From Acidiferrobacterales bacterium (GTDB lineage: Bacteria; Pseudomonadota; Gammaproteobacteria; Acidiferrobacterales; UBA6901), in the NCBI GenBank assembly GCA_035256085.1, contig DATEYP010000055.1, positions 1 to 48,066 of the forward strand: DNA of 48,066 bases, read 5' to 3'. Positions 17,674 to 38,760 of this stretch are shown one piece after another. Every line of letters starts with the position of its first letter. Within the stretch, counting starts at the first letter, position 1. The translations under genes and the position numbers were made by a program. The notes beneath the pieces were generated by a model. It was not told where the DNA came from, searched no databases, and worked only from the letters and a program-made list of their open reading frames with translations.

Positions 17674-17755
17674 GCTGATCCAGTAAGCGCAGTAATATAT
17701 TATGGATTCGCGAGTCGGCGTTCCGCATCGCTTGGCGGCTGTTCCCGGAGGGACG

Positions 17756-20648: not shown

Positions 20649-20933
20649 GGAATCCCTCCCCGTTACCGGCTGGGTATCTCCTACCACCAAGGTATTACAA
20701 CCATTTTCTCCGTAGCACACAAGTCTGGTCGCATCGCGGGGGTTTGCGACTCGCCGCGAGGTATCCGGTAGCGACCAATGTCGTAGTGCTTCTGTGCGAT
20801 TTCACTTTGTGGTCAAACACGAAACAATTTCCTCCACAACAGGGTAGGGAGTCGAGAGGAGCGATACCGCAAGGGCTGTGCTGATGAGGGTGTCATGAGG
20901 CAGCTAACGGCTGCCAGTACCGAGGAGGGTGTC

Positions 20934-22091
20934 ATGGAACAGGAACTGAATCTCTGGTTAATCGGTGGTGGATTGTTGCTCGGTGTGCTGTTCGGGGTCA
21001 TCGTGCAGCACTCGCGTTTCTGCGTGCTCGCGGCGGTCAGTAACTGGGTGCTGATGCGCGATCTGCGGCAGGCGCACGGGTATCTCGCCGCCGTGACGGT
21101 GGCCGTGACCGGCGTCGCGTTGCTGGAATTCTCTGGAATGGTGCCGGTGAGCGAGTCGATCTACCGCGGTGCGCGCATCGACTGGCTCGGCGCGATCGCC
21201 GGCGGCGCGGTGTTCGGGGTCGGCGTGGCGCTCGCCGGCGGTTGCGCCGGGCGGCTGCTGGTGCGCGCGGCCGAGGGCAGCGCCGGCGCACTGGTCGCGC
21301 TTATCGCTGTCGGCGTCGGGGCGGCGGTCTGTGCTTACGGCGTACTGGCGCCATCGCGTACTGGACTCGCGGAGTCGACCGCCCTCACGCTGGCCTCGGG
21401 CGACAGCTCGCTGACTGTGCTGCTTAACATGCCGTTCTGGGTTGCCCCTGCGGCGGTGGCGGTCAGCGGAGTTCTGGCGATCGCCGCCGGTGTGCGACGT
21501 CACGCGAGCGGCGGCATGGTGCTCGCGGGGACCCTGATTGGCGCACTGATCGTCGCCGGATGGATCGTAACCGGCTACCTCGCACGCGATGAGTTCGCAG
21601 TAGCAGTGCACCGTCCCGCCTCGCTCGCGTTTGCCGGCCCGCTCGCGCAGTTCATGCGCTATGTGACAAGTGGCGAGATCACCGGTAACGGCTTTCCTCT
21701 AGCGCTCATGGGTGGCGCGCTGGCCGGCGCTCTGGCCAGCGCGGTGTCACGCGGCAACTTCCGTTGGACGATGCCCGCGGCCCCGGAGTTCATACGCACC
21801 GTCGTTGGCGGCGGGCTCATGGGGATCGGCGCGGTATTCGCGGGTGGCTGCAACATCGGCCAGGGCCTGACCGGCGTGTCGACGCTCTCCCTCGCATCGC
21901 TGCTCGCCATCGCGGGCATGGCGATCGGCATGCGTATGGGTCTCGCATGGTTGTTGCACATGGATCAGGCGCATGGCAACCACGGTCATCGTTTTGCTCG
22001 CTGGCAGCACGTGCTTCGCGAGCGTCTCACCGTCGCACGCGAACGTAAGCAGTTGGCGCCACATGCGAACGGGAGCAACTGCTGTAGCTGA
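20934..22091 (+). CDS. YeeE/YedE-family sulfur-compound (thiosulfate-type) transporter
   Basis: Polytopic membrane protein with two conserved Cys-containing segments (QHSRFCVLAAV and FAGGCNIGQG). ATG 20934 is preceded by AGGAGGG. Alternative ATG 20895 has an almost identical SD context. Confidence 0.85.
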   Translation: MEQELNLWLIGGGLLLGVLFGVIVQHSRFCVLAAVSNWVLMRDLRQAHGYLAAVTVAVTGVALLEFSGMVPVSESIYRGARIDWLGAIAGGAVFGVGVALAGGCAGRLLVRAAEGSAGALVALIAVGVGAAVCAYGVLAPSRTGLAESTALTLASGDSSLTVLLNMPFWVAPAAVAVSGVLAIAAGVRRHASGGMVLAGTLIGALIVAGWIVTGYLARDEFAVAVHRPASLAFAGPLAQFMRYVTSGEITGNGFPLALMGGALAGALASAVSRGNFRWTMPAAPEFIRTVVGGGLMGIGAVFAGGCNIGQGLTGVSTLSLASLLAIAGMAIGMRMGLAWLLHMDQAHGNHGHRFARWQHVLRERLTVARERKQLAPHANGSNCCS

Positions 22092-22124: not shown

Positions 22125-22739
22125 ATGAAAACAAAGACGGCGTTTTTCCTGGTGCTTACCCTGCTGTCCGGTCTTGCTGCCTGTGGCGGCGGAGAGGGCG
22201 GCGGGGATGGGGTTAGCGGCGGAGGGTCGAGCGCAGCACCCGTCAGTTCCTCGAGTGACGCGCGATTCGTCGTGCGCGATATCGCGGACGGTGTAATACG
22301 CCGCAATCTGCTGCCTTCATTGAACAACGGGAGCCATTGGGAGACGCTCGTCCCTGGACTATCAGGTACGGCGAGCGTGTCCGGGACCGAGACCTACTCC
22401 GTGGGGCAGTCGTGTGGTACCAACTGCGTGAGAACATCGGCAAACGTCAATATCACCGTGATTTTCAACGGTTACGCTGTCATGTCCGCCAACAACACCA
22501 GGACTACCCTGACCGGCACAGTTACTTACACAGACTACACGTGGTACCAGCAATCGGGTTTGACCTACAGCTCCGGCGGGAGTGTGAGTGTTGGTGGTAA
22601 TGGTGTGAGCTACAACATCGCGGAGACGAGCGGGAATTTTGCCTATAGCGACACACTTACGTTCGACGCGAGTGGCAGCGACCCGGCCTACGTGAACGGT
22701 TGGTGCCGGCCAAGCAATGGGACGACCTATAGCTTTTGA
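22125..22739 (+). CDS. Lipoprotein of unknown function
   Basis: 204 aa with lipobox LSGLAAC, a Gly-rich tether (GGGEGGGDGVSGGG), then a Thr/Ser/Tyr-rich, probably beta-rich domain. I did not recognise a family. Confidence 0.65.
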   Translation: MKTKTAFFLVLTLLSGLAACGGGEGGGDGVSGGGSSAAPVSSSSDARFVVRDIADGVIRRNLLPSLNNGSHWETLVPGLSGTASVSGTETYSVGQSCGTNCVRTSANVNITVIFNGYAVMSANNTRTTLTGTVTYTDYTWYQQSGLTYSSGGSVSVGGNGVSYNIAETSGNFAYSDTLTFDASGSDPAYVNGWCRPSNGTTYSF

Positions 22740-22821
22740 CGCTGCTGGGTCAGAATGTACTGGGTGAAATCGAGTCGGGGTGATTTTGTACGATCATCGT
22801 AGTGCAGAAAGGCACCGGGTG

Positions 22822-22926
22822 AGGCGCGACAATATCGAGGAGACACAGCGTTTGATCGATTACGGCGACACCTACTCGCTCGCCGACACCCACAGTGCTT
22901 TATGTTGGCATCGGTTGGCCATCTGA
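22822..22926 (+). pseudogene. 3' fragment of a CPCC-family paralogue
   Basis: Reads RRDNIEETQRLIDYGDTYSLADTHSALCWHRLAI*. It aligns codon for codon with 9829-9905 of the intact CPCC gene (RDNIEEPQRGIDYADTYPLYDTTVL), with about three quarters of nucleotides identical. There is no upstream part and no start. Confidence 0.6.
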
Positions 22927-23155
22927 CTCGCTCAAGTACCGCGTCATCCGCTCGTCATTTTCCTCGCCGGCCAAGATGTAGACATGGCGGTCATTTGTTG
23001 ATCCGCGTCAATACCTTATTCGTCCCAGAGTGCTATACAGCGAGAGGCCATGGATTGCAGCCGGTATGCTATGCAGCCACTCGGAACCCCTCTGTAAGTC
23101 TGTTGTTGCCTCAATGTGCAACTGCGTTAACTCACTGAATCACTCTGGAGGGGCC

Positions 23156-23529
23156 ATGAAAACGAGCTGGGTTGTGACCGGGCTGTGCGGCGGGATATTT
23201 GCAGGAATGGCGTTGTGGTCTGTTGCAGACGGGGTGCCGTCGTCGTATACGGCTTCGCCTGAGGTATAAAGGTGCTGGCCGAAAACGACGAGATGCGCGT
23301 GGTGCTTGCTACTTGGCCACCAGGGCACAAGGACAAGGGTCATTCACATCCCATGGCCGCGGTTTTCACGATCAAAGACTGTCAGGCGCGGATTTCAACG
23401 CCCGAAGACGCTGCGCGAGAAGTCAAAAACAAGGCTGGTTCGGCGCGCGTCAACGCGCCGGTAAAGTCGCACACGTTTCAAAACATCGGCAAGACCGAGT
23501 GCCAACAGATGCTGGTGGAACACAAGTAG
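23156..23529 (+). pseudogene. Secreted cupin-domain protein split by a frameshift (signal-peptide ORF 23156-23269 + cupin ORF 23272-23529)
   Basis: SD GGAGGGG then ATG 23156 encodes MKTSWVVTGLCGGIFAGMALWSVADGVPSSYTASPEV*. The next frame continues (GI)KVLAENDEMRVVLATWPPGHKDKGHSHP..., the usual start of a mature small cupin. The two parts are 1 frame apart at 23260-23272. The 85-aa cupin part could still be expressed from GTG 23272. Confidence 0.55.
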
Positions 23530-23803
23530 TAGGCACGGTGGGTGGGGTCGATCGGCATCGAATGGCCCCGCCCAGTTGATAGGGTGGTTCCCATGGCATT
23601 CCGACAGCTACAGTCATAGACAGGTCAAGCAAATGAAGTGCTGGAGCAAATCGCTCATCAGACCGTGGCATCCGGTTATCGGCTATTCTTGACAAGCGGG
23701 GAGCGTTCGCGTTCCCTTAAGGATTGCATGGTACGTATAGCGTGTGTTCCAGAGACACCCTTGTATTCTTAATGTAGTTTCAACCAGCAGGAAGGGAACA
23801 TTC

Positions 23804-24250
23804 ATGATCATTAGCCTACGAGCTATGGCAATTGCCGTGCTGAGCGTTCTGTTGCTTGGCGGTTGTTCAGCCGGTATCTCCGGCTCCGTGCGCATGGTTG
23901 ACCGCAACAACAAGCCGATTGCGGACGCTCCCCTTGAAGGGATTGTTGTTAACATGATCAACACGTCTTCGGCAGTGGAGCAGGCCTCGCACTCGGTCAG
24001 AACCGACAAGAAAGGGCATTTCGAAGCCGGTTCCGACAAGATCAAGCCAGGTGTCTACAAAATAGAGGTCAGCGAGCCTGGTTATGTCGCCGCCACCAAG
24101 ACCATTGAAGTCAAAAAATCCTCCCGCTCGGTCGATCTGGACCTTAGACAGTTGCCGAAAGGCGCTTCGCAATCCTACCGCGGCATGAAGTCCGACAAGG
24201 ACAAGATCATCAATCCGGGTGAGGTCAATATCCAGCCGCCTTCCATGTAA
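23804..24250 (+). CDS. Lipoprotein with carboxypeptidase-regulatory-like (Ig-like) domain
   Basis: ATG 23804 follows AGGAAGGG (the track ORF opens at 23744). Lipobox is LLLGGC. The segment IKPGVYKIEVSEPGYVAATKTIEV is typical of CarboxypepD_reg/PEGA-like beta-sandwich domains. Confidence 0.75.
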   Translation: MIISLRAMAIAVLSVLLLGGCSAGISGSVRMVDRNNKPIADAPLEGIVVNMINTSSAVEQASHSVRTDKKGHFEAGSDKIKPGVYKIEVSEPGYVAATKTIEVKKSSRSVDLDLRQLPKGASQSYRGMKSDKDKIINPGEVNIQPPSM

Positions 24251-24265
24251 CCGGCACACGTTCAG

Positions 24266-24298
24266 CGCGCCGGCCGATTCCGGCCGGCGCGGCATTTT
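24266..24298 (+). terminator. Possible intrinsic terminator
   Basis: 11-bp GC stem CGCGCCGGCCG / CGGCCGGCGCG, loop ATTC, followed by GCATTTT. Confidence 0.5.
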
Positions 24299-24328
24299 CA
24301 ACTATAGCGAGAGTCAGGGAGTCCTAAC

Positions 24329-26899
24329 ATGCGAGCGAGAATACTGTTCGGGTCGATGCTGGCTATTCTGGTCCTGGTAGCGGCCTGCACTGCCAAACCG
24401 ATTGGTTTTGATCTGGAAGTGAATGTCCAGCTCGACGGAAAGCCGGTCAAGGATGCCAGTATTACGGTCGATGGTGTCCCCGAAGGCAGCACGGACGCGC
24501 GTGGTCGCTTCGCCAAGACTCTGTCGCGATCACCCGAGAAGCCGATTCATCTTGCGGTGCAGAAGGAAGAAGGCAAGTTCCGCGCCAAGACCTGGGAGAA
24601 GACATTTTCGATCAAGTCGCGCAAGGATACTGAGCCGGTGGAAAAGCAGAGCCTGACCGCCGAGTTACAGCGCTTTGTGACGATTCTCGTGACCCAGGCC
24701 GACCAGCCGCTGGCTGGCGCATCTGTCTCCGTCGACGGCAAGGATCTCGGTCAGTCGCAGGCGAACGGCACCGTTGAACATGTCTTCGGCAAATGGCCGA
24801 AGAATGGCCTGCTCGTGGGCGTGAAGAAAGACGGTTACGGCGAAACCCGTTTCGCCTATCGCGGTGAATCCGGCGATCGCATTAATGCCGGTCTTTACAC
24901 CGAGGCAGTGGTCACGATCGAGGTGCTGGAAGACCAGAAGGGACGGACGCGTCCGATCAAAGGTGCGGCGGTCACGGTCGGCGGAATCGCGGCCGGCAGC
25001 ACCGGCGACAATGGCGTGTTGACCTACCGGCACAAGGGGACCTTTGGCGAGACCGTGCCGGTGCGTATCAGTGCCGCCGGTTTTGCACCGTCGAGCAGCA
25101 CGCGCCCGGCGCTGCTCGGCGGACAGAATCGAATCAAGCAGTATTTCCATTCGGCCGTTGCCGAACGCCCGCGCACCGCAGTGCTGAGCTTCGCCGCCAA
25201 TACCGCCGGCGAGGACATCTCGGATGTCGTCAAGAAGTTCGAGGAGAGCTTCAACAAGGAGTTGTTCGATTCCAAGACGTTCAAGTCGGTGCCGGCCGCC
25301 ACCGCGCGCGAGCTCATGGGGCGCTCCAAGCTCAGCGTCGACAAGATCAAGACCAGCGACTGGCGAAATACCGGCCTCGGCAATGCGGTGGATGTAATCG
25401 TGTTCGGCAGCATTTCACGCGGCGAGGACGACGATTATGTCATCGAGACCAGTTTCTACCAGTCGAACGGCAAGCTGGCGCTGACCCAGGCGGCCGTCGC
25501 CGGCAGCGGCGGAAGCTGGCGCGTCGGCCGGGCGGTGAACGAAATCGTCTCAAACGTGCTGGCCGCCTATCCGATCTCCGGAACCGTCATCGCCGGGAAT
25601 GACGAAGGCGCACAGATCAATCTGGGCAGGGGCCAGTTCGCCATCGGCGGCGACGATATCTTCTTGCTGCAGTCGACCAGGCGCGACGAAAACGGCCGGA
25701 TCACCGGTTACAGCGACGCCGGCACCATGAAGGTGCGCCGCCGCCGCGACGACCAGACCGATCTGCAGATGGAGTCGCTGCGCGCGCCGCCGCGCGCCGG
25801 CGACCGCGTGACTCGCCTCGATGTCTCGGTGCGCGCGGCCGGCACCGACCGCATCACGGTAGCCGTGAAGGGCGGCGTGGGCAAGGAAGGCGCGGCGCTG
25901 ACCGGCACGAATGTCTACCTCGACAACCGCTGGGCCGGAACCACCAACCGTGCCGGCGAGGCCAGCGTGCCGCTCAAGCTCGGACGCAATTACCGGCTGA
26001 TGGTCTATCGCCACGGCTACGGGCAGGCGACTCGCAAGATCAAACCGGGCAAGCCCGGCGAGCGCTACGAGTTCGGGCTCAAGTCCTTCAGCTCGCAATT
26101 CACGGCCGAAAGCGAGCCGTCCGGCGCCTCGGTTTCAATCGATGACAACCGCGTCGGCAGCACACCGATTACCAAGCCGCAGGCGGTGACGTTCGGCTTC
26201 CACACCGTGCGCGTCGAGGCTGGCGGCGATTATCGGGCGTGGGAAGAGGTGGTGGAGTTCAGCAAGAAAGAGGAGAAACGCACCGGCGCCAACCGCATTG
26301 TCCTGCACAAGGACTATCTCAAGCTCGGCGAGCAGGCCGAGGCCGCCGGCCGCCTCGAGGACGCCATCCGCCTGTACTCGTCCGGAACCCGGGAACATCC
26401 GGACTATGCCGATCTGCATCACCGTCTCGGCCAGCTCTATTATGACGGCAAGCGCGATTACGACCGCGCCATCGCCGAGTTCGAGTCGGTGCAGGCCATC
26501 CCCGCGGTCGAGGAACTGGTCTACAAACAGTACGCGATCGTCTACACCAATCTCGGCAAGGCCTATTACGCCAAGGGCGCGCAAGTGTACCGCGCGAACC
26601 GCGGCGAGGCGGTGCAATACTATGCCAAGGCCGTCAAGGCGCTCGACCGCGCACGCGAGAATACGCGGTTCTTTCCGAACGAGCGCCACGACGAAGCCGT
26701 GCACGATACCTATTACTATCGTGCGCTCGCCTACCAGAATCTGTACGACGCCACCCAGCGCGAGGCCCTGTCCACAAGCGTGGAGCTTGCCTGGCTGGAG
26801 TATCTGGACACGTTCCCGTCCAAGTTGCGCGGCAATCCGGAGTATGACCAGATGCGCGAATCGGCGGAGAAGCTGGCCAAACAGGTACAGGGAAAATAA
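24329..26899 (+). CDS. Large mosaic lipoprotein: repeated Ig-like (CarboxypepD_reg) domains, TolB-N/LpoB-like module, PEGA domain, C-terminal TPR repeats
   Basis: 856 aa with lipobox LVAAC. It has at least four ~70-aa repeats of the pattern ...G(A)xVxVDG...G.T...G. A central AVLSFAANTAGEDIS...VDVIVFGSISR segment resembles the AVLPF-type TolB-N/CsgG/LpoB fold. PEGA-like segment is SEPSGASVSIDDNRVGSTP...HTVRVEAGG. The tail is TPR-like (AIRLYSSGTREHPDYADLHHRLGQLYY...). Confidence 0.75.
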   Translation: MRARILFGSMLAILVLVAACTAKPIGFDLEVNVQLDGKPVKDASITVDGVPEGSTDARGRFAKTLSRSPEKPIHLAVQKEEGKFRAKTWEKTFSIKSRKDTEPVEKQSLTAELQRFVTILVTQADQPLAGASVSVDGKDLGQSQANGTVEHVFGKWPKNGLLVGVKKDGYGETRFAYRGESGDRINAGLYTEAVVTIEVLEDQKGRTRPIKGAAVTVGGIAAGSTGDNGVLTYRHKGTFGETVPVRISAAGFAPSSSTRPALLGGQNRIKQYFHSAVAERPRTAVLSFAANTAGEDISDVVKKFEESFNKELFDSKTFKSVPAATARELMGRSKLSVDKIKTSDWRNTGLGNAVDVIVFGSISRGEDDDYVIETSFYQSNGKLALTQAAVAGSGGSWRVGRAVNEIVSNVLAAYPISGTVIAGNDEGAQINLGRGQFAIGGDDIFLLQSTRRDENGRITGYSDAGTMKVRRRRDDQTDLQMESLRAPPRAGDRVTRLDVSVRAAGTDRITVAVKGGVGKEGAALTGTNVYLDNRWAGTTNRAGEASVPLKLGRNYRLMVYRHGYGQATRKIKPGKPGERYEFGLKSFSSQFTAESEPSGASVSIDDNRVGSTPITKPQAVTFGFHTVRVEAGGDYRAWEEVVEFSKKEEKRTGANRIVLHKDYLKLGEQAEAAGRLEDAIRLYSSGTREHPDYADLHHRLGQLYYDGKRDYDRAIAEFESVQAIPAVEELVYKQYAIVYTNLGKAYYAKGAQVYRANRGEAVQYYAKAVKALDRARENTRFFPNERHDEAVHDTYYYRALAYQNLYDATQREALSTSVELAWLEYLDTFPSKLRGNPEYDQMRESAEKLAKQVQGK

Positions 26900-26901
26900 T
26901 C

Positions 26902-28149
26902 ATGCCGATCGGTCGCCGGGGCAGAGCTGCGGCACTCGGCGCCAGTCTGCTGGCCACTGCCCTGACGGCTATGGGCGAATCCGTACCGCAGGTAGAGCTG
27001 ATCCCCGAATACATCCGTGCGCTTCCGGGCAGCGACGGGCGCGACAGCAACGATTCCAGCCCGATCTGGGCACCGGGCGGAGCGCTGCTGGCCTTCGAGC
27101 GCGCCGAGGAATCGCGGCGCGAGATTGTGCTGATGCGCCTTGACGGCACGCCGGTCAGGACGGTTTATTACCAGGCGAGCGGGGCCGATGACGGCCTCGA
27201 TACGCTGCTGCCCGGACTGGGCCTGGCGACGAGTTACAACTCCGGACTGGCGTGGTCGCCACGTGGCGAACGCTTCGTGTTCATGAGCAATGCCGGCGAA
27301 GGGAACTACGATCTCTATCTCGGCAGCCAGCAAGGCAAGACCAGCCAGCGCCTGACCGACAGCCCCCAGAAAGACGGTCTGCCCGACTGGTCGCCGACCG
27401 ACAACACCGTGGCGTTTGTATCGGGCCGCGATGGCGGCGCGCAGCTGTACCTGCTTGAGGTCGACAGCCGGCGCATTGCCTCGGTGTCGATGGGTGACAA
27501 GGCCTATCTCTATCCACGCTGGTCGCCGGATGGCCGGCGCATTGCCGCGATCTATGGCGCCAACGAGAACCACGACATCGTACTGATCGAAGGCGACCTG
27601 CGCGCGGTGTTGCGGCCCGCGCCGGTTGTGGTCGATTCCGCTGGAAGGCGGGGCGCAGACAAAACGCCATCGCCCGCGCCGGTCAAGCCTGCACCCCCGC
27701 CGGTGAGCCAGCGCGCGCTCACCACCTGGCGGCATGATGACCTCAGTCCGTCCTGGTCGCCGGACGGCAAACGCATTGCGTTTTATACCAATCAGAACGC
27801 AGACGACGATCCCAGGATCTGGGCGATTGCCGTGCTCGATTCATCCGGGGCGACACCGGGCGAGGGCGCGGAACTCGTGGCACAGGTGGTGGCGCGCAAT
27901 GTCATCCCGGATGTAACCATGGGACCGGCGTGGCTGCCGGACAGCCGGCGCATCGCCTACGTGCGCAACGACAAGCACGATTACAGTCCGATTTATCTGG
28001 TGGATGTCGACAGTCGCCAGCACTGGCGGCTGCAGACCGGGACCAACATCAACCATGATCTCGCGGTGTCACAGCAAGGGGTGCTGGCATTCCGTGCCCA
28101 GGTGAATCAATGGGACCGGATCTTTCTGGCGAAACTCCCTGACCGATAA
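26902..28149 (+). CDS. TolB-like periplasmic PD40 beta-propeller protein
   Basis: 415 aa with a signal peptide. At least six PD40 repeats are present: SPIWAPGGALLAF, LAWSPRGERFVF, PDWSPTDNTVAFVS, PRWSPDGRRIAA, PSWSPDGKRIAFY and PAWLPDSRRIAYV. A Pro-rich insert is also present. Confidence 0.85.
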   Translation: MPIGRRGRAAALGASLLATALTAMGESVPQVELIPEYIRALPGSDGRDSNDSSPIWAPGGALLAFERAEESRREIVLMRLDGTPVRTVYYQASGADDGLDTLLPGLGLATSYNSGLAWSPRGERFVFMSNAGEGNYDLYLGSQQGKTSQRLTDSPQKDGLPDWSPTDNTVAFVSGRDGGAQLYLLEVDSRRIASVSMGDKAYLYPRWSPDGRRIAAIYGANENHDIVLIEGDLRAVLRPAPVVVDSAGRRGADKTPSPAPVKPAPPPVSQRALTTWRHDDLSPSWSPDGKRIAFYTNQNADDDPRIWAIAVLDSSGATPGEGAELVAQVVARNVIPDVTMGPAWLPDSRRIAYVRNDKHDYSPIYLVDVDSRQHWRLQTGTNINHDLAVSQQGVLAFRAQVNQWDRIFLAKLPDR

Positions 28150-28154
28150 TCCCC

Positions 28155-29594
28155 ATGCGTCGCATTCGCCTGATTCTCATTCTGCTGTGTACCGTTCCGG
28201 GTGCGGTCCTGGCCGCGGGCGGCAGCCTCAAGCAGGCGACCCAGCTGCTGGACCGGAACTATTACGAATCGGCCGCTGCCATGTTGCGCGCCGGGGTGAG
28301 TGGCGGAGATTCCGCCTCGGTGGCGTTTCTGCTCGGACGCGCCTACCTGCGTAACGCCCAGTTGCAGCACGCCCTGCATCGCTCGTCGCTGGTCACCGGC
28401 AATCGCTACCTGCGCAAACTCGCCACCCAGGCCGGTCGCGACCGCAGTCGCTATGCGGCGCTGTATTACGGTGAGACTCTGCTCGAGTCTGGCAGCAAGC
28501 AGGCCGGCATTGAGCAGCTGCAGAAATTTGCCGCGCAGGCCGGAATTGCCATAGCCCACCGGCAGATTGCCGAAGTGCGGCTGGCCGCGGCGCGCGGCGG
28601 CGCGCTGCCTGCTGCCCAGGGACTTGCGCTCGAGGCGCGCACCGAATTGGCCGTGGCGCTCAGCCGCAAGGCCGCGAAACAACCTGAGCCCGTGGCGCTG
28701 CTGGACCAGACGCTCGCCGAGCTGCGCGGAAGTGGCGGCGCCCTGCCGGTGCGGGCTGTCACCAATGCCGTGGCGGTGTACACGCGGACCGGCCAGTACG
28801 ACAAGGCCTTGGCACTGCTCGGCAGCGAAGATCTCGGCCGGCCCTCGTATCAGGAGACCCTTGGCAAGAGCAAGACCCTGCGCTTTTACGATGCCGCGTT
28901 GCTCGGCAATCTCGCCGCCCTGTACCAGGCGGCCGGCGAACAGCAGATGGAGCAGGCGCGCAGCGATGCGCGCCTCAAGGCGGTCGTCGCCTATTTCCTG
29001 GCCGATGCCTGGCTGGCCCAGGGTCGCGCGGACAAGGCCGGCGCGCAACTGGCCGGCGGCGGCGAGCTGCCGCCGGCATATCGCGAGCGCGTGGCCATGA
29101 TGCAGGCGGCCGTCGAGGTACGCGGCAACCAGGGCCAGAAGGGCAATGCCGCATTCACGGCGCTGAGCGCCAAACACGGCCAGGATCCGGTGCTGCTCGG
29201 CGAACTATTGATGCTCTGTGTGCAGGCCAAGGCCAAGTGCGGTGACGTTGCCAACGCCGCCGAGATGCTCGCCGCCACCGGCCAGGGCGAGCGGTTCCGC
29301 GGCCTGCACCGCGCCATTGGCATGCAGCATGCCGGGGCCGGACGCCACGATCGCGCCCTGCAATATCTCGAGACCGCGCGCGACAAGAGCAACAAGAACC
29401 GCATCGACACCAATGACCCGTTGCTGCTGGTGCAGCTCGCCGATCTGTACCTGGCGACCAAGAGCTTTTCAGAGAACCTCGAGATCTATTTCGAGCTGAG
29501 CAAAGAGTTTCCGGCCGTGCGCCAGTTGCAGGAGTTGGGTCAGGGCATCTATTCGATGGAATACCGCAGTGCCGGCGATGTGAAGATTTTCTGA
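28155..29594 (+). CDS. Secreted all-alpha (TPR-like) repeat protein
   Basis: 479 aa with a signal peptide (LILLCTVPGAVLAAGG). The composition is Ala/Leu-rich and helical with TPR-like segments. I did not recognise a specific family. Confidence 0.65.
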   Translation: MRRIRLILILLCTVPGAVLAAGGSLKQATQLLDRNYYESAAAMLRAGVSGGDSASVAFLLGRAYLRNAQLQHALHRSSLVTGNRYLRKLATQAGRDRSRYAALYYGETLLESGSKQAGIEQLQKFAAQAGIAIAHRQIAEVRLAAARGGALPAAQGLALEARTELAVALSRKAAKQPEPVALLDQTLAELRGSGGALPVRAVTNAVAVYTRTGQYDKALALLGSEDLGRPSYQETLGKSKTLRFYDAALLGNLAALYQAAGEQQMEQARSDARLKAVVAYFLADAWLAQGRADKAGAQLAGGGELPPAYRERVAMMQAAVEVRGNQGQKGNAAFTALSAKHGQDPVLLGELLMLCVQAKAKCGDVANAAEMLAATGQGERFRGLHRAIGMQHAGAGRHDRALQYLETARDKSNKNRIDTNDPLLLVQLADLYLATKSFSENLEIYFELSKEFPAVRQLQELGQGIYSMEYRSAGDVKIF

Positions 29595-29612
29595 TACGGG
29601 AGGGAGACAGCC

Positions 29613-31283
29613 ATGAACGAGGAGCGAGCCATGATCAAGACCATAGTGAAGATGCTGGGCGCCGCCATGCTGCTGGGCGGCGTGGCCAACGGCCAGGCCG
29701 CAGAACCGGCCGCGGCGCCGAAGGTGCCGCCGGTGGCGGCCTCAAGCGGGGTGCTGAGCTATGGCGAATACGGCCGTCCGACCACGCTCGACCCGATCAC
29801 CAACAACGACATGATTGCCCTGCGCATCACCGAACTGGTGTTCAACGGGCTGGTCGGTATCGACAACAAGCAGCAGATCGCGCCGGAACTGGCCGAGAGC
29901 TGGGACATGTCCCCGGATGGCCAGGTCTACACCTTCCGGCTGCGCAAGGACGTGCGCTGGCATGCGCGCCCCGGCGAGGAGCCGCGGCCGTTCAGCGCCG
30001 ACGACGTGGTATTCACCTACAAGATCATGATGCACCCCAAGACCATCACGCCGCTCAAGGTGCGCTACGAGTTCATCGATGAGGTGAAAAAACTCGACCG
30101 CCACACCGTGCGCTTCACGCTCAAGCGCCCGATCATGAACGCCCTGCCGAAATTCACGTTCAAGATCATTCCGGAATTCGGGTTGAGCAACTCCGCCTAC
30201 CTGGCGCGCGACGATGCCTTTGTGCAGAAGCCGATCGGCACCGGTCCGTATCAGTACAGGGAAACCACCGCAAACGGCGAGATCGTGCTGGAGGCCAATC
30301 CGCATTACTTCAGGGGCGCGCCAAAGATCGCGCGCTTCGTGGCCAAGCCGTTCGCCGACCAGAACATCATGAATCAGGCGCTGATGTACAACAACATCGA
30401 CATGTCGGTGCTGGTCAATCCGCGCAACGTGCCGGAGATCCAGGGCGACAAGCGCCTGCGCCTGCAGCCGTACAACGCGTTGTCCTATTCATTCTTCGGC
30501 TACAACGTGCGCAACCCGCAGCTCGCCGATGCGCGCGTGCGCAAGGCCTTCACACTCGCAATCAACCGCAAGGAGATGCTGAACGCCTTCTTCAACAACC
30601 AGGGCACGGTCATCTCCGGCCCGTTCGCGCCGGGTTCGTGGGCGTATAACCTGGACGTCAAGCCGCTGCCGTACAATCCGGACGAGGCCGAGAAGCTCCT
30701 CGTCCAGGCCGGGTACAAGAAGGGCAGCGACGGCATCATGGCCAAGGCCGGCAAGAAACTCGCGCTTTCTCTGAAGGTGCCGATCGCCCAGGAGAGCGAG
30801 GCGACCAAGCGCGTGGTGCTGGCCTTCAAGAATTACCTGCAGCGGATCGGCGTGCAGGCCGATGTGGAGTTCCTCGAATGGCAGGCCTGGAAAGAGGCGG
30901 TGTTCCTGACCCACGATTTTGACATCATGTTCGCGTCGTGGGTGTTCGATGACTCGGCCGATATTTCCTCGTTGTTTCATTCGGCCGAGATCGGCGCGTG
31001 GCGCAACAACTTCGGCGGCTACTCCAACCCGGAGGTCGACAGCCTGTTGGTCGAATCGAAGCTGACTCTCGACCACGAAAAGCGCCGCACCATCTACCGC
31101 AAGCTGCACGAGATGCTGGCCGAGGAGAGCCCCTACACCTTCTTGTGGACGCTGACCAACTATGCGGCCTATCACAAGAAGGTGCGTGGCGTGCAGATTC
31201 ACCCGTACAAGTTCTTCTCCTATGCCGATACCTGGTTTATCGGCGAGGCAGAAGGAAAAGCCGGGGCCGCGGTCAAAAAGTAA
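29613..31283 (+). CDS. ABC transporter substrate-binding protein, family 5 (peptide/nickel/opine type)
   Basis: 556 aa with a signal peptide. The family-5 N-terminal pattern is TLDPI...ELVFNGLVGIDNKQQIAPELAESWDMSPDGQVYTFRLRKDVRWH. Alternative start 29631. Confidence 0.9.
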   Translation: MNEERAMIKTIVKMLGAAMLLGGVANGQAAEPAAAPKVPPVAASSGVLSYGEYGRPTTLDPITNNDMIALRITELVFNGLVGIDNKQQIAPELAESWDMSPDGQVYTFRLRKDVRWHARPGEEPRPFSADDVVFTYKIMMHPKTITPLKVRYEFIDEVKKLDRHTVRFTLKRPIMNALPKFTFKIIPEFGLSNSAYLARDDAFVQKPIGTGPYQYRETTANGEIVLEANPHYFRGAPKIARFVAKPFADQNIMNQALMYNNIDMSVLVNPRNVPEIQGDKRLRLQPYNALSYSFFGYNVRNPQLADARVRKAFTLAINRKEMLNAFFNNQGTVISGPFAPGSWAYNLDVKPLPYNPDEAEKLLVQAGYKKGSDGIMAKAGKKLALSLKVPIAQESEATKRVVLAFKNYLQRIGVQADVEFLEWQAWKEAVFLTHDFDIMFASWVFDDSADISSLFHSAEIGAWRNNFGGYSNPEVDSLLVESKLTLDHEKRRTIYRKLHEMLAEESPYTFLWTLTNYAAYHKKVRGVQIHPYKFFSYADTWFIGEAEGKAGAAVKK

Positions 31284-31307
31284 GCAATAAATCTAAAAAC
31301 GGTGTTT

Positions 31308-31440
31308 AGCCACAGATGAACGCAGATTAATGCGAGATGAATCTTGCCGTTGATGCACCGAGGTCGTTCACCCTTTTGGTGGGCTGGCCAATACAGGCGT
31401 GCATTGAATATCGTATATATCTGCGGTTAACTGCTTTTTT
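31308..31440. repeat. Second, more degenerate copy of the CAGATRAACG-type hairpin, ending in a T tract
   Basis: AGCCACAGATGAACGCAGAT (31308-31327) is identical to 6803-6822. The degenerate right arm is ATCTGCGGTTAACTGC (31419-31434), followed by TTTTTT. Confidence 0.7.
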
Positions 31441-31452
31441 AGGATAAATAAT

Positions 31453-31478
31453 GCCGGCCGGTCGCGTGACCGGCCGGC
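31453..31478. other. Perfect 11-bp GC hairpin in the SBP-permease spacer
   Basis: GCCGGCCGGTC-GCGT-GACCGGCCGGC. Confidence 0.8.
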
Positions 31479-31529
31479 GTCATTGTTCGTATGAGCGCAT
31501 AACGAGAATCAGCGGGGCGGGGGAGTGAC

Positions 31530-32495
31530 GTGCTCAATCTGAACGCCTGGAAGCCGGTCGCGTCGCTGCTGTTGCGCGAACTCGCCGTGACGACGGCGTT
31601 GTTGTTCGGGGTGAGTCTGGTCATCTTCCTGATTTTGTATGCCGCGCCCGGCGATCCGTTCGCCGCGCTGCTCGGCGGACGCATGCTGTCCGACAGCGAG
31701 CGCGCCGCTGCCTATGAGGCGCTTGGCATTTCACAAAGCTGGTACGGCCAGTATCTTTCCTGGCTCGGCAATTTGCTGGTCGGTGATTTCGGCGTGTCGA
31801 TGCGTTCCGGCCAGCCGGTCATCCAGGAGATCATGGCCAGCGGCGGGCGCACGCTGTTCCTGACGCTCGGGTCGCTGGTCGTGACGCTGGCGGCGGCGGT
31901 GCCGATTGGCGTGTACGCCGCGCAGCAGCCGGGCGGGCGGCGCGCCTGGGCACTGACCATGTTCAGCTACCTGGTCTCGGCGTTGCCGACATTCTGGATC
32001 GGCTATCTCGTGATTTACCTGTTCACCAGCCAGTTCGGCATGCTTCCGATCCTGTCCGGGACCGGTGAGCCGCAGCCGTATGAATGGCTTTATGTTCTGC
32101 TACCGGTGCTGGTGCTGGGTCTCGGCAACGGCGCGTTTGCCGAGGTGGTGCGCTACGTGCGCGAGGAGACCGGCCGGGTGCTGGGCGAGGAATACGTGCG
32201 CACCGCGCGCGCCAAGGGTGCCGCCGTGTGGCGGCATGTCTACAAGGAAGGGCTGCTGCTGCCGGTCGCGGAGATCATCGCCTCGAAGATGCCGTTCGTG
32301 CTCGGCGGGGCGATCATCGTCGAGCAGGTGTTCAACTGGCCGGGTCTGGGCCGGCTGGCCTGGCAGGCCGCCCAGGACCGTGACTTTCCGGTAATCCTGG
32401 CCATCACCCTGATTGCCGCGGTGGTCGTCCGTCTCGGCAGCCTGCTGCACCGCATGGTGTATGTCGCGGTCAATCCGCGCGCCTCGCACGAATAA
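31530..32495 (+). CDS. Peptide ABC transporter permease (DppB/OppB-like)
   Basis: 321 aa with a GTG start. The N-terminal pattern FLILYAAPGDP and the EAA-loop region EEYVRTARAKG are typical of OppB/DppB. Confidence 0.9.
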   Translation: MLNLNAWKPVASLLLRELAVTTALLFGVSLVIFLILYAAPGDPFAALLGGRMLSDSERAAAYEALGISQSWYGQYLSWLGNLLVGDFGVSMRSGQPVIQEIMASGGRTLFLTLGSLVVTLAAAVPIGVYAAQQPGGRRAWALTMFSYLVSALPTFWIGYLVIYLFTSQFGMLPILSGTGEPQPYEWLYVLLPVLVLGLGNGAFAEVVRYVREETGRVLGEEYVRTARAKGAAVWRHVYKEGLLLPVAEIIASKMPFVLGGAIIVEQVFNWPGLGRLAWQAAQDRDFPVILAITLIAAVVVRLGSLLHRMVYVAVNPRASHE

Positions 32496-32508
32496 CCGGG
32501 AGCCGCCA

Positions 32509-33402
32509 ATGAGCCGCTACTACCAGCCGCACGACACCGTCAGCGAATATTCGGAGATTCGCAGCTGGCGCAGCGCATCGCTGGTCGATCGCGCATACGT
32601 CGGCTACGGGCTGGCGGTCGTGGTACTCGTGGTGCTGTCCTACCTGCTTGGCATGTTCGGCTGGTTGCCGCACGACCCAGAGGCGATGGACCTGGCCACC
32701 ATGCTGGTCGGACCGCTGACCGAGAATTATGTGCTCGGCACCGACTATATGGGGCGCGACCTGTTGACGCGCCTGATCCTCGGTATCCAGGCCTATTTCC
32801 TGCCGGGGTTGCTGTCGATCGCCATCGCGCTGTCGCTGGGCGCGGCACTGGGGGTGCTGGCCGGCTACCACGGCGGGCGCAGCAAGGTCGCGGTCACCTA
32901 CGTCACCAACCTGGTCGATTCCCTGCCGCGGCTGGTGCTGATGCTGCTGGTGATCGCCGCCTTCAAGCCCGGCATCTACACCATCATGGTGGTGCTCGGC
33001 CTGACCACGGCACCGACGGTGGCGATGCTGGTGCAGGGCAAGATCATGATGCTCCGCGAGCGTAATTTCATCGAGTCGGCCGTGGCGCTCGGCATCTCGC
33101 CGGGACGCATCATCCTCAAGCACATCCTCTGGTATAACTGCCGCGCGCTGCTGTTGATCCAGGCGACGCTCGGCATGGCCGAGGCGGTGCTGCTCGAAAC
33201 CAGCCTCAGCTACCTCGGTTTCGGTGTGCAGGAGCCGACACCGTCATGGGGCAACATGGTGCAGTCTGGCGCCAATTACTTGTTGCAGGGAAATTTCTGG
33301 GTATCGACCGCGCCGGCGCTGGCCATCCTGTTCACGGTGCTTGGATTTCACCTGCTCGGCGACGGCCTCAACAACATGTTCGAAGGAAAGCGGCAACGAT
33401 GA
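32509..33402 (+). CDS. Peptide ABC transporter permease (DppC/OppC-like)
   Basis: ATG 32509 (MSRYYQPHD...); the track ORF from 32413 overlaps the previous gene. It has LGTDYMGRDLLTRL and the EAA loop ERNFIESAVALG. Confidence 0.9.
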   Translation: MSRYYQPHDTVSEYSEIRSWRSASLVDRAYVGYGLAVVVLVVLSYLLGMFGWLPHDPEAMDLATMLVGPLTENYVLGTDYMGRDLLTRLILGIQAYFLPGLLSIAIALSLGAALGVLAGYHGGRSKVAVTYVTNLVDSLPRLVLMLLVIAAFKPGIYTIMVVLGLTTAPTVAMLVQGKIMMLRERNFIESAVALGISPGRIILKHILWYNCRALLLIQATLGMAEAVLLETSLSYLGFGVQEPTPSWGNMVQSGANYLLQGNFWVSTAPALAILFTVLGFHLLGDGLNNMFEGKRQR

Positions 33403-34493
33403 GCGCCATCCCGCTGCTGCGTATCGAGGATCTGCGCACCTATTTCTTTTCGCGCGCCAAGCAGGCGTTCATCCGTTCGGTGGATGGCGTCGATCTCGAA
33501 ATCGCGCGCGGCGAAACGCTCGGCATCGTCGGTGAATCCGGCAGCGGCAAGAGCGTCAGCATGCATTCCGCGCTGGGGCTGGTTACCGCCACGCCCGGCG
33601 TGATCAGCGGGCGCGCGGTCTTTCACGACGAGGCGCCGCGCGATCTGCTGGCCGGGCTTGATGCCTGCACGCGCCTGGAGCGGCGCGATGACCGCATCAT
33701 GTCGGTGGAGAAGGATAACCGCGCCTGGCAGAAGCAGGTTGAGCGCAATCTCGCCGGGGTGCGCGGTGGCAAGATCGCCATGATTTTCCAGAATCCCAAG
33801 GCGGCGATGAATCCCTACGAGACCATCGGCGCGCAGATCAGCGAGGCAGTACGCCTGCACACCGCGATCAAAGACCCGGCCGCGGCACGCGAGCGCGCGT
33901 TGCATTGGCTGGAGGCGGTGCGTATCGACTCGCCGCGCCTGCGTTACGACAACTATCCCCATGGCCTCTCGGGTGGCATGTGCCAGCGCGCCATGGTGGC
34001 GATGGCGCTGGCCGCCGAGCCGCGCCTGCTGGTTGCCGACGAGCCGACCACCGGCCTCGATGCCACGATTCAGGCGCGTATCGTCGAGCTGCTGGAGGAA
34101 CTCAAGACACGCTTCGGCATGACGCTGGTGCTGATCAGCCACGACATCGGCGTGATCGCGCGCTTGTCCGACCGGATCGCGGTGATGTACGGCGGACAGG
34201 TGCAGGAGTCCGGGCCGGCGGCCATGCTGCTTGAGCAGAGTGAGCTGGGCCATCCCTACACCCATGCGCTGCTGGCCTCGATGCCGCGCGCGAAAAATGT
34301 GAAGCATGGCGGCCGCCTGCCAGCCATCGAGGGCGAGGTGCTCGATACCATCAACGTGCCGCGTGGCTGCCGGTTCCGCGAGCGCTGCCAGCGCATCCAC
34401 GATGGCATTCGTGCGCGTTGTGCCGAGCAGGAGCCGGAACTGGTCGAGGTAACGCCGGGACGGCGCGTGCGCTGCTGGCTGTACCAGGCCTGA
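33399..34493 (+). CDS. Peptide ABC transporter ATP-binding protein (DppD/OppD-like)
   Basis: ATG 33399 overlaps the upstream stop (ATGA). Walker A is GESGSGKS, signature is LSGGMCQR, Walker B is LLVADEPTTGLD. The C-terminal oligopeptide-type Cys-rich extension is present. Confidence 0.92.
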   Translation: MSAIPLLRIEDLRTYFFSRAKQAFIRSVDGVDLEIARGETLGIVGESGSGKSVSMHSALGLVTATPGVISGRAVFHDEAPRDLLAGLDACTRLERRDDRIMSVEKDNRAWQKQVERNLAGVRGGKIAMIFQNPKAAMNPYETIGAQISEAVRLHTAIKDPAAARERALHWLEAVRIDSPRLRYDNYPHGLSGGMCQRAMVAMALAAEPRLLVADEPTTGLDATIQARIVELLEELKTRFGMTLVLISHDIGVIARLSDRIAVMYGGQVQESGPAAMLLEQSELGHPYTHALLASMPRAKNVKHGGRLPAIEGEVLDTINVPRGCRFRERCQRIHDGIRARCAEQEPELVEVTPGRRVRCWLYQA

Positions 34494-34506
34494 CAGGGGA
34501 ACCGAC

Positions 34507-35517
34507 ATGACGCCGCCGCTTCTGGAAGTGAAAGGCCTGAGCAAGCATTTTTCCCAGCGGCGTGGCCTGTTCCGTATGCTCTCGGGAACTGCCGCCGGCA
34601 CCATCCCGGCCGTGGACGACGTGAGTTTCACACTAGCCGAGAACGAAACCCTGGGACTGGTTGGGGAGTCCGGTTGCGGCAAGACCACCACCGGCAAGGC
34701 GATTCTCAAGCTTATGCCGGTCACGGCCGGCGTGATCCGCTATCGCGACCGGGACATCACGCCGCTGTCGCCGGCGGAATTCCAGCCGCTGCGGCGCGAG
34801 ATCCAGATGATCTTCCAGGACCTCGATGCCGCGCTCAATCCGAAGATGCGAATCGAGAGCATCCTGCACGAGGCCATCGCCCTGCGCGAGCCGGAGCTCG
34901 ACGCCGATGACCTGCGCCGCCGCGCCTACGATTTGCTCGAACTCGTCAACCTCAAGAAGAACAAGTTGGCCAACTTTCCTGCGGAATTGTCGGGTGGCGA
35001 GAAGCGGCGCATCGGCATCGCGCGCGTACTGGCGGTGCGTCCGAAACTGATCGTCGCCGACGAACCGACCAGCGCCCTCGATGTCTCGATCCAGGCCCAG
35101 GTCATTAACCTGCTGCGCGACCTTCAAGACCAGTTCGGGTTGTCTTATCTGTTCATCTCGCACGACCTGCCGCTGGTTGAACTGGTCAGTCACCGGGTGG
35201 CGGTGATGTATCTGGGCCAGATTGTCGAGCTTGGGCCCGCGCCGCGTATCGCGCATGCGCCGCGCCACCCTTACACCTCGGTACTGTGGTCGTCACTCGC
35301 CGAGAAGCGCTCCCAGGAAGCCGTCAGCGTTACGGCCCCGACCTGGGGAGTCTTCGACTTCGAGCGCCCGAGCGCCGGTTGTCGCTTTGCCCCGCGTTGC
35401 CCGGTGTATGCCGCGCGCGGCAAGCCGCCCGAGTGCACCGATCCGTGCAACGCCCCGCGTCTGCGCGAAATTGAACCTGGCCACGTCGTCGCCTGCCATT
35501 TCCCCCGTGAGCCCTGA
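34507..35517 (+). CDS. Peptide ABC transporter ATP-binding protein (DppF/OppF-like)
   Basis: 336 aa. Walker A is GESGCGKT, signature is LSGGEKRR, Walker B is LIVADEPTSALD. Confidence 0.92.
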   Translation: MTPPLLEVKGLSKHFSQRRGLFRMLSGTAAGTIPAVDDVSFTLAENETLGLVGESGCGKTTTGKAILKLMPVTAGVIRYRDRDITPLSPAEFQPLRREIQMIFQDLDAALNPKMRIESILHEAIALREPELDADDLRRRAYDLLELVNLKKNKLANFPAELSGGEKRRIGIARVLAVRPKLIVADEPTSALDVSIQAQVINLLRDLQDQFGLSYLFISHDLPLVELVSHRVAVMYLGQIVELGPAPRIAHAPRHPYTSVLWSSLAEKRSQEAVSVTAPTWGVFDFERPSAGCRFAPRCPVYAARGKPPECTDPCNAPRLREIEPGHVVACHFPREP

Positions 35518-35720
35518 TGCTCCTGTGAGCATCAGGCGGTTGCTCGCGCACCCCTGAGCAAGAATCGCAAGGCGCGCCCTGCGATGGATAGCAGCAAGGC
35601 ACATGAAGGCCGTACTCAGAACACAACAACAAGTGGCGGCCGATCCGTCATCCGTTTGATGTGCTCTGGATCAGCGGCTTCATCGGTGCCAGGTTCGGGC
35701 TTCCTTGAGTCGAACCGAGG

Positions 35721-38233: not shown

Positions 38234-38236
38234 AGG

Positions 38237-38734: not shown

Positions 38735-38760
38735 GTCGTTACCTGGCAAGGGTAAGGAAA

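Follow-up and report, generated by a model that had tools for sequence, protein, structure and literature searches.

Why does the binding protein of a peptide-type importer stand directly behind a row of secreted envelope proteins? In the textbook view, a Gram-negative binding-protein-dependent importer of the ATP-binding cassette (ABC) type needs only a freely diffusing periplasmic receptor. In the present study, we analysed a 48,066-nt stretch of DNA from an Acidiferrobacterales bacterium (contig DATEYP010000055.1; the whole stretch is called the window below), in which the gene for a family-5 substrate-binding protein (SBP) follows genes for lipoproteins, a beta-propeller and a helical-repeat protein. 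We found that the conserved unit comprises nine genes at 23804–35517, namely four envelope genes (g0, gA, gB and gC), the SBP gene (gD) and four importer genes (gE, gF, gG and gH). The reading that we prefer, with a probability of about 45%, is that these genes encode an outer-membrane-anchored envelope complex in which the SBP is a core subunit and which, in cassettes of the window's type, feeds the ABC importer.

The nine-gene cassette and its sister family

All nine genes lie on the + strand. The first, g0 (23804–24250, with its ATG behind GGAAGGG), encodes a small lipoprotein of 148 aa, and gA (24329–26899) encodes a multidomain lipoprotein of 856 aa, as judged from Pfam, NCBIfam and an AlphaFold2 (AF2) model. 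The product of gB (26902–28149) is a secreted PD40 beta-propeller of 415 aa (Pfam PD40 2.4e-28, five repeats), and that of gC (28155–29594) is a secreted TPR-like superhelix of 479 aa, assigned from its AF2 model and a weak TPR_19 match. The periplasmic family-5 SBP of 556 aa is encoded by gD (29613–31283; SBP_bac_5 4.2e-84). Two ABC permeases follow: gE (31530–32495, GTG start) carries an N-terminal extension (Pfam BPD_transp_1 6.2e-26), and gF (32509–33402; BPD_transp_1 1e-14) has its start set at a conserved Met. The last two genes encode ABC ATPases, gG (33399–34493) with Pfam ABC_tran and a C-terminal oligo_HPY domain and gH (34507–35517) with ABC_tran at 4.4e-31 and oligo_HPY at 1.1e-11. 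A PepT importer set (one family-5 SBP, two BPD_transp_1 permeases and two ABC_tran plus oligo_HPY ATPases) was therefore complete in one operon. Side observations on the importer genes include two stretches of ABC_tran match in gG, which are separated by an extra segment of about 50–60 residues (approximately residues 70–125) after the Walker A region. In L018, L028, L057 and L062, all four Nitrospirota loci, insertions of 0.6–1.7 kb separate the permease genes from each other.

An earlier interpretation made from the letters of the window, referred to here as the sequence-only reading, had described the four open reading frames (ORFs) gA to gD with gaps of 2, 5 and 18 nt. These ORFs and gaps were exact: gA and gB are separated by 2 nt (TAA-tc-ATG), gB and gC by 5 nt, and gC and gD by 18 nt. 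An alternative in-frame ATG of gD at 29631, behind GAGGAG, corresponds to a residue that is conserved in orthologues, and the gap between gC and gD would then be 36 nt. The spacer between gD and gE is 246 nt, one less than had been given, and the start of gG overlaps the stop of gF by 4 nt, the −4 nt being also the family median at this junction. The domain content was likewise as described, since Pfam and NCBIfam returned PEGA/CarboxypepD_reg lipoproteins, a PD40 propeller, a helical-repeat protein and SBP_bac_5. The proposed module at 23804–31283 proved real, and its scope too small: the permeases and ATPases are included, and the unit extends to 35517.

The relatives of this unit were compared next to their neighbours in other genomes. 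Full-length relatives of gA formed 32 clusters that were 40–83% identical and all about 855 aa long, found in metagenomes and metagenome-assembled genomes (MAGs) only. A GTDB scan with one genome per species yielded 122 genomes with a gA relative, all of them MAGs, and 80 loci were kept. In a tblastn comparison of 85 related loci with the nine window proteins, the order and strand of the nine genes were kept in 85 of 85, as far as each contig extends. Three loci that were looked up individually had the identical order (the helical protein being about 487 aa) and entirely different flanking genes. The order of the quartet gA to gD is thus conserved in relatives, and the possibility that no relative shares it, which the sequence-only reading had raised, is refuted. 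The carriers were labelled Pseudomonadota, Nitrospirota, Thermodesulfobacteriota and Rokuibacteriota, i.e., at least four phyla; their labels include Gallionella, Sideroxydans, Burkholderiales, Acidiferrobacterales, Sulfurifustaceae and many Nitrospirota, together with Rokubacteria, Desulfobacterales, Desulfuromonadales and Geobacteraceae. When flank ORFs were clustered over the 61 loci with more than 3 kb upstream, the best shared cluster occurred in only 8 loci, and no outer-membrane channel or regulator was conserved as a flanking partner.

Tight gene spacing by itself is commonplace in operons, and it is the order and strand common to all 85 loci, not the spacing, that lift the cassette above chance. 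This bears on the alternative in which the importer operon is an ordinary one for oligopeptides and its position behind unrelated envelope genes is accidental. Each part does come from a common domain family, and close packing is normal in bacteria; an invariant nine-gene order over 85 loci and at least four phyla with unrelated flanks already contradicts a coincidence, as does the retention of the SBP beside the envelope genes where the transporter is absent (see below), and we regard this alternative as extremely unlikely. The gA and gD sequence clusters mix phyla, and one SBP cluster (less than 22% distance) held Nitrospirota, Rokubacteria, Geobacteraceae and Acidiferrobacterales members together, so the cassette has moved horizontally as a block. 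On this comparative evidence, the window contains one copy of an operon of nine genes that is self-contained and has spread horizontally. No curated family, solved structure or paper was found for the cassette proteins in Pfam, NCBIfam, the PDB and the literature on the domain combination, which agrees with the earlier statement that no system of this composition has been characterised.

A profile of gA was searched against 1.84 billion representatives, of which 194 matched at E <= 1e-30. Among the 150 best of these gA-like proteins, most were 930–1130 aa long and matched gA from about residue 116 on. These long relatives carry PEGA, CarboxypepD_reg and TPR domains, and their beta domain behind the TolB_N-like domain resembles Pfam FlgT_C (E 1e-5, 26.2 bits, cut-off 27); no FlgT_C match was obtained in Pfam for the window's own gA. 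The long relatives belong to a sister family of loci (type 2; loci of the window's kind are called type 1). In six of six type-2 loci (L087–L092, e.g., L087:9593–17024), the order was two unknown genes, a small CarboxypepD_reg lipoprotein, the gA-like protein, a PD40 propeller, an SBP_bac_5 protein and a PilZ protein (36.8 bits, cut-off 22.5), and no permease, ATPase or gC was present within 10 kb. The type-2 SBP was 42–46% identical to gD over its full length and kept the invariant motifs, and the identities were 29–36% for gB and 23–25% for gA. Since type 2 keeps the lipoprotein(s), the propeller and the SBP in the absence of the transporter, these comparisons indicate that they are the old core of the system. 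Divergent heptosyltransferase, KdtA-like and RNase E/G genes lie upstream of the type-2 loci, and Rfam returned nothing on the six loci.

The sister family provides the strongest support for the central intuition of the sequence-only reading, that the SBP is tied to the secreted proteins. The invariant order over at least four phyla, the unrelated flanks and the retained SBP all speak for a functional association of gD with these proteins, and we infer that gD is an integral member of the envelope module and not merely the receptor of a pump.

The binding protein and the envelope proteins

Among the cassette proteins, gD was the most conserved. The mean identity to the window protein was 0.68 for gD, 0.64–0.66 for the ATPases and 0.40–0.46 for g0, gA, gB and gC, and the identity of gD across phyla was 62–83%. 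Such conservation is, in our view, unusual for an SBP and probably reflects extra interaction surfaces.

The solved relatives of gD do not point to a single ligand class. The best was the Ni(II) binder CcNikZ-II (8efz; 217 bits), followed closely by the nonapeptide binder AppA of B. subtilis (209 bits) and, as the third best, by the Ni(II) binder CjNikZ (4oet; 172 bits). The dipeptide binder DppA gave 160 bits and the murein tripeptide binder MppA (3o9p) 97 bits. gD remained under every NCBIfam equivalog cut-off (Opp4A 198 vs 650, DppA 165 vs 1005, NikA 158 vs 393), and no component of the cassette reached a curated equivalog cut-off in NCBIfam (OppA-F, DppA-F, NikA-E, GsiA-D, SapA-F and Cnt). 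The best NCBIfam match was the nickel permease Opp2B for gE (222 bits, cut-off 350) and Opp4C for gF (212 bits, cut-off 350).

These matches could be read as uptake of nickel, cobalt or a metal chelate by a NikZ/Opp2 kind of system with accessory envelope proteins. Two of the three best solved relatives and the best match of gE favour such a function. So does the Arg of the gD motif ESEA.KRVVLAF, which is present in nearly all of the 64 orthologues and aligns with the conserved chelator-carboxylate Arg of NikZ; the CjNikZ stretch expected to hold Arg344 aligns with this Arg of gD, the residue number not having been traced in the alignment. DppA has an Arg at the same position, which indicates that the residue is not NikZ-specific. 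The signature of the NikZ type is a double-His (HH) prong near the C terminus (bioRxiv 10.1101/2022.10.03.510666). In gD, PYKFFSYA aligns with the CjNikZ stretch LGHHGVGF, and HH was found in the last 90 residues of 1 of the 64 orthologues. With the prong missing in the other 63, gD as a NikZ-type nickel binder was rejected. Considering also that AppA matched nearly as well, that every NCBIfam match fell under its cut-off and that the upstream regions showed no enrichment of Fur, Zur or NikR boxes, metal uptake is an improbable explanation of the cassette.

In DppA, Asp408 of a W-x-x-D motif holds the alpha-amino group of the peptide. The segment with this motif, GWTGD, aligns with SWVFDD, which is invariant in gD (a correspondence seen in the alignment only). 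Arg355 of DppA, the clamp of the dipeptide carboxylate, aligns with a Val in the conserved gD motif LKVPI, so the clamp is not kept. This is compatible with longer ligands, as in AppA or OppA, and our best guess is that the ligand of gD may be peptide-like and longer than a dipeptide.

We then considered the four envelope proteins. g0 consists of one CarboxypepD_reg/PEGA-like beta-sandwich (Pfam CarboxypepD_reg 3.2e-09, PEGA 9e-05), and its C-terminal tail, D.IINPGEVNIQPP.M, does not vary among 76 orthologues, in contrast to a poorly conserved body. A lipobox was present in 67 of these 76, with residue +2 being Ser in 36 of the 67, Ala in 29 and Asp in none. For gA, 77 of 80 orthologues carried a lipobox, and Asp occurred at +2 only once among the lipoboxes of both proteins. 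The Lol sorting rule of Proteobacteria is the basis for assigning a lipoprotein to a membrane from residue +2. Because Asp is nearly never found there, the sequences suggest that g0 and gA have no inner-membrane retention signal and would be placed in the outer membrane.

The larger lipoprotein is built of many small domains. Pfam and NCBIfam recognised CarboxypepD_reg, PEGA (9e-16) and TPR in gA. Its AF2 model (predicted local distance difference test score, pLDDT, 84.7) begins with three immunoglobulin (Ig)-like beta-sandwiches at about residues 25–275, followed by an alpha/beta TolB_N-like domain (282–413), a beta domain (417–496), CarboxypepD_reg (508–584), PEGA (588–660) and a C-terminal TPR domain (663–855), which is the most conserved part of the protein. 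The TolB_N signal was weak in sequence (Pfam E 0.022; NCBIfam TolB E 0.0024, residues 276–398). Foldseek returned Ig-like arrays (the B. anthracis TIE protein, Gram-positive pilins and SlaB) and TPR proteins, and also TolB with E of about 4e-5 to 2e-4 and a probability of 0.98–1.00. Hence, of the LpoB/TolB-N-like module that had been suspected in gA, the TolB_N-like half held up by fold, while LpoB gave no Pfam or NCBIfam match for gA at E <= 0.1.

The propeller gB stands alone, with neither a TolB N-domain nor a peptidase domain, and has a variable Pro-rich insert at about residues 235–270. gC was modelled by AF2 with high confidence (pLDDT 91.1, predicted template modelling score 0.90) as an all-alpha TPR-like superhelix with a beta-hairpin at 232–244; it has two invariant Cys residues (355 and 362) and a conserved C-terminal tail, SAGDVKI[FNL], that was modelled as disordered. 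Foldseek found only generic TPR scaffolds for gC (Tom70/71 and APC/C subunits, TM about 0.33), and a PDB sequence search gave no match. In some 70 genomes, both C-terminal tails, that of g0 and that of gC, stay invariant although the remainder of each protein drifts, and the tails are probably docking peptides for a propeller or a TPR groove.

Together, these parts recall Tol-Pal, and the sequence-only reading had taken them for a paralogous Tol-Pal accessory set that captures or releases murein peptides for MppA-like import. The cassette does combine a PD40 propeller with TPR proteins, a small outer-membrane lipoprotein and, encoded next to the propeller gene, a TolB_N-like domain. The similarity did not extend to family level, however. 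gB scored 139.7 bits against the TIGR02800 TolB equivalog (cut-off 343.15), over the propeller only; its BLASTP identity to E. coli TolB was 26%, over the PD40 repeats only, and its PDB matches to TolB were at most 55 bits. The hhalign probabilities were 0.6% for the gA profile against E. coli TolB and 6.7% for the gC profile against E. coli CpoB, so that the CpoB-like assignment of gC was not upheld. The cassette contains no Pal/OmpA_C domain (g0 has CarboxypepD_reg only) and no TolQ, TolR or TolA-like gene, and no peptidoglycan-binding or -processing domain was found in any of its proteins. The MppA-type receptor fared no better, since MppA reached 97 bits, compared with 217 for 8efz and 209 for AppA. 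The profile and Foldseek annotation that had been suggested as a check gave generic scaffolds, Ig arrays and a TolB_N-like fold, and no membership of the TolB, CpoB, LpoB or MppA families. Taken together, a Tol-Pal-like murein peptide system is a very unlikely explanation.

Transcription, cyclic dinucleotides and genomic setting

The cassette in the window contains two related hairpins, both on the + strand. The hairpin behind g0 (24266–24298) has a G+C-rich core, GCCGGCCG-ATTC-CGGCCGGC, followed by TTTT, and is likely a partial terminator or an mRNA stabiliser. The hairpin in the spacer between gD and gE (31451–31480; 13 bp, 10 of them G-C) has the same palindrome core and lies within a larger fold (z = −2.4 vs shuffles). 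The core GCCGGCCG..CGGCCGGC occurs twice in the window, behind g0 and behind gD, and in none of 100 shuffles. Thus, the permeases, which had been described as lying 247 bp away behind hairpins, lie behind one strong hairpin within a larger fold. Hairpins with dG <= −15 kcal/mol were found behind the SBP gene in 30 of 56 related loci. In ABC operons of the malE-malF and hisJ-hisQ type, such hairpins raise the amount of the binding protein and are not a sign of separate regulation.

Across the family, the median gaps were 89 nt for g0-gA, 56 nt for gA-gB, 40 nt for gB-gC, 57 nt for gC-gD, 77 nt for gD-gE, 41 nt for gE-gF, −4 nt for gF-gG and 33 nt for gG-gH. Because the medians on the two sides of gD are 57 and 77 nt, the distance from the SBP gene to the scaffold genes is not generally smaller than that to the permeases, and the claim that spacing links the SBP more tightly to the scaffold proteins does not hold for the family; the 246-nt spacer is local to this window. 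Soil metatranscriptome contigs of a relative (about 85–90% identical) bridge gA-gB and gC-gD and cover all genes, which is consistent with one transcript in that relative. The RNA runs contain relatives only (6–8% of words) and report on a relative's expression, not on regulation.

Regulation was approached from the upstream regions of the relatives, with 76 loci that have 300 nt upstream of g0 and, for neighbouring GGDEF genes, 72 loci with an upstream flank. The regions upstream of g0 share 8-mers, and through these a conserved RNA element was recognised, which Rfam identified as RF01051, the c-di-GMP-I (GEMM-I) riboswitch. The aptamer (48–53 bits, gathering score 35) lies directly upstream of g0 in 27 of the 76 loci. 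A covariance model of 22 copies (R1) gave 26 strong matches (102–128 bits), all directly upstream of g0, and L069 adds the 27th copy (Rfam 53 bits). The element is located 87–276 nt upstream of the first cassette gene (e.g., L027:9199–9337 and L017:4284–4426; the carriers are L012–L022, L027, L032, L037, L039, L044, L045, L053, L060–L062, L066, L069 and L081–L085). Eight base pairs showed compensatory changes, and 0 of 500 shuffles reached the observed values. The position equivalent to G20 of Vc2 was A in 24 of 24 extracted copies; A20 marks GEMM-Ib aptamers that are selective for cyclic GMP-AMP (cGAMP) or bispecific (PMC6140456, PMC6456294). In addition, P1 overlaps with a terminator that is followed by a T-run, the 3' strand of P1 being shared with the terminator's 5' arm. 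Because of this overlap, ligand binding would be predicted to turn the operon ON by antiterminator logic, by analogy with the layout described for GSU1761 (PMC6140456, PMC6456294).

A second link to cyclic dinucleotides came from neighbouring genes. A GG[DE]EF gene was present within 4 kb upstream in 18 of the 72 loci, compared with 1 of 43 downstream. These genes usually end 300–420 nt before g0 and have REC-GGDEF or REC-GAF-GGDEF architectures in Pfam. In L016, the motif 'INDTFGH' of the REC-GGDEF protein adjoining the cassette contains the usual Asp, which we take to be the mark of an ordinary diguanylate cyclase and not of a Hypr (cGAMP) enzyme. A riboswitch, a GGDEF neighbour or both were found at 39 type-1 loci, about half of them. 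Consensus scans of the 76 upstream regions for Fur, Zur, NikR and sigma-54 sites were no better than shuffles, and control by these factors was rejected. The end of the L010 contig (a Burkholderiales MAG) carries a canonical c-di-GMP-I riboswitch with G at position 20 (10555–10640, 72.6 bits). It follows the last cassette gene at a distance of about 300 nt and presumably controls the next, unseen gene.

The cyclic-dinucleotide links in the relatives would place the system in a surface-attached lifestyle programme. Two further readings were considered. In the first, the cassette would be an undescribed envelope machine, anchored in the outer membrane and spanning the periplasm, that is built of Ig-array lipoproteins, a PD40 propeller and TPR proteins. 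Its obligatory and most constrained part would be the SBP, it would be switched on by cyclic dinucleotides through a GEMM-I riboswitch in one clade and a PilZ partner in the sister family, and the importer would be an optional output. This is quite possible, at somewhat less than even odds. In the second, the genes would form a sensor or structural device for attachment, matrix handling or ligand sensing, in which the SBP senses or builds, by analogy with LuxP, ChvE and TorT in signalling, while the importer is a later add-on and nutrition is beside the point. Type 2 points in this direction, since it lacks permeases and ATPases, retains the SBP and adds a cytoplasmic PilZ c-di-GMP receptor, as do the riboswitch or GGDEF neighbour at about half of the type-1 loci and the likeness of the gA Ig-like arrays to pilins and S-layer anchors. 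Nevertheless, the importer was never lost in the window's type, and its permeases and ATPases are strongly conserved, indicating that transport is under selection; moreover, orphan SBPs may use transporters encoded elsewhere. We therefore consider a sensor or structural device without a nutritional role rather unlikely.

The window also places its copy in a particular genomic setting. On one side of the cassette lies a Calvin-cycle/glycolysis cluster (2440–9467; tkt, gap, pgk, pyk and class II fba), and on the other lie cbbR-cbbL(-cbbS)-cbbQ-cbbO and a beta-carbonic anhydrase gene (35721–43315). From these genes, the host is a chemolithoautotroph; the setting is not common to the other loci. 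The gene directly behind fba (9486–10016) encodes a protein of 176 aa that contains a Cys_rich_CPCC domain (1.6e-25). At 10629–20041, a tandem row of seven paralogous binding-protein genes of the ABC_sub_bind family (PF04392), with overlapping starts and stops, precedes a hybrid histidine kinase gene (dCache-HAMP-HisKA-HATPase-REC), with no permease or ATPase genes adjoining; this group looks like a sensor array. A Sulf_transp gene is located at 20895–22091. The region of approximately 1 kb upstream of the cassette (22740–23800) has a lower G+C (0.56) and no long ORF, only a short one (23199–23579) without a Pfam match. At about 23690, a TTGACA adjoins an imperfect palindrome, GGGAGCGTTCGCGTTCCC, and the region may represent either the scar of an insertion or the promoter/operator. 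Near the end of the window, 45630–47709 contains genes for a tyrosine recombinase (Phage_integrase) and, behind it, a transposase of the IS91 family (Y2_Tnp).

Proposed model and comparison with known systems

The envelope complex that we prefer could work as follows. gA would hang from the outer membrane by its Ig-like stalk and span the periplasm, where gA, gB and gC would assemble as a scaffold. The disordered tails of g0 and gC would dock into the propeller or TPR grooves. The scaffold would hold or load gD, which would bind a peptide-like ligand and pass it on to the permeases. Owing to the hairpins behind their genes, g0 and gD would be made in larger amounts than the products of the downstream genes. 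Many relatives would have an operon that a cyclic dinucleotide switches on, or have a diguanylate-cyclase-type gene beside it.

Several points weigh against this reading. Type 2 has no nearby transporter, and import therefore cannot be the function of the core module. No outer-membrane channel by which a ligand might reach the periplasm was found in the cassette or conserved beside it. The two solved SBPs closest to gD, which score about equally, bind nickel and a nonapeptide, respectively. The copy in the window has neither a riboswitch (Rfam at E <= 0.1 over 22700–36800, where nothing relevant was returned, and R1) nor a GGDEF neighbour. Furthermore, all carriers are uncultured (MAGs or metagenome contigs), and the RNA evidence consists of assembled metatranscriptome contigs that possibly include DNA.

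The module challenges the view of the free receptor, since here the receptor is tied to four envelope proteins, evolves more slowly than the ATPases and survives without a nearby transporter. These features point either to a new route of ligand delivery across the envelope or to an SBP with a role other than transport. The module is common among uncultured bacteria that cycle iron, sulfur and nitrogen in aquifers, soils and sediments, and it moves between phyla as a unit. It is also among the few operons of wholly unknown function behind a GEMM-I riboswitch, and would represent a new output of c-di-GMP/cGAMP signalling, with five protein families that could be named.

The comparison with known systems begins with the GEMM-I/GEMM-Ib regulons, i.e., the c-di-GMP regulons of Vibrio and the cGAMP regulons of Geobacter (pgcA/GSU1761). 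Twenty-seven relatives share with them the A20 aptamer and the terminator that overlaps P1, whereas the window has no such element and the cassette is not among the riboswitch-controlled genes in PMC6140456 and PMC6456294.

For the envelope proteins, Tol-Pal of E. coli is similar in its parts, since neighbouring genes of the cassette encode a propeller, a TolB_N-like domain, TPR proteins and a small outer-membrane lipoprotein. It differs in that the TolB_N-like domain and the propeller of the cassette are on separate proteins and that g0 is a beta-sandwich instead of an OmpA_C domain. CpoB has a coiled-coil plus three TPRs, whereas gC is a 479-aa superhelix. What is shared are building blocks and not a family, and by analogy they suggest a scaffold that may bridge the envelope. 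Proteins of the TolB_N fold (FlgT, LpoB, PelC and CsgG) form rings or adaptors beneath the outer membrane. gA shares with FlgT of the Vibrio flagellar H-ring an alpha/beta TolB_N-like domain followed by a beta domain, but the FlgT_C match is below threshold and confined to the long relatives, and the window has no flagellar context.

Another match in composition is PorE (PG1058) of Porphyromonas type IX secretion (T9SS), an outer-membrane-anchored periplasmic lipoprotein that is a proposed scaffold and that combines TPR, beta-propeller, carboxypeptidase-regulatory-like and OmpA_C domains in one polypeptide (PMC5053529). The first three of these building blocks are present in the cassette, a resemblance of composition only. 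In the cassette, unlike in the Bacteroidota protein, the blocks are distributed over four proteins and tied to an SBP or importer, with no OmpA_C domain and no T9SS genes.

The importer half is most similar to the PepT family (TC 3.A.1.5), which includes AppA-AppBCDF, DppABCDF and the NikZ systems. The likeness comprises the SBP, two permeases and two oligo_HPY ATPases, the hairpin between the SBP and permease genes, and the peptide-binding Asp of DppA that is aligned in gD. The cassette departs from these importers in that its parts fall below the equivalog cut-offs and gD has neither the HH prong of NikZ nor Arg355 of DppA. It further differs in having a sister family with an SBP and no nearby transporter, an SBP that is more conserved than the ATPases, and four dedicated envelope genes that always stand ahead of the SBP gene.

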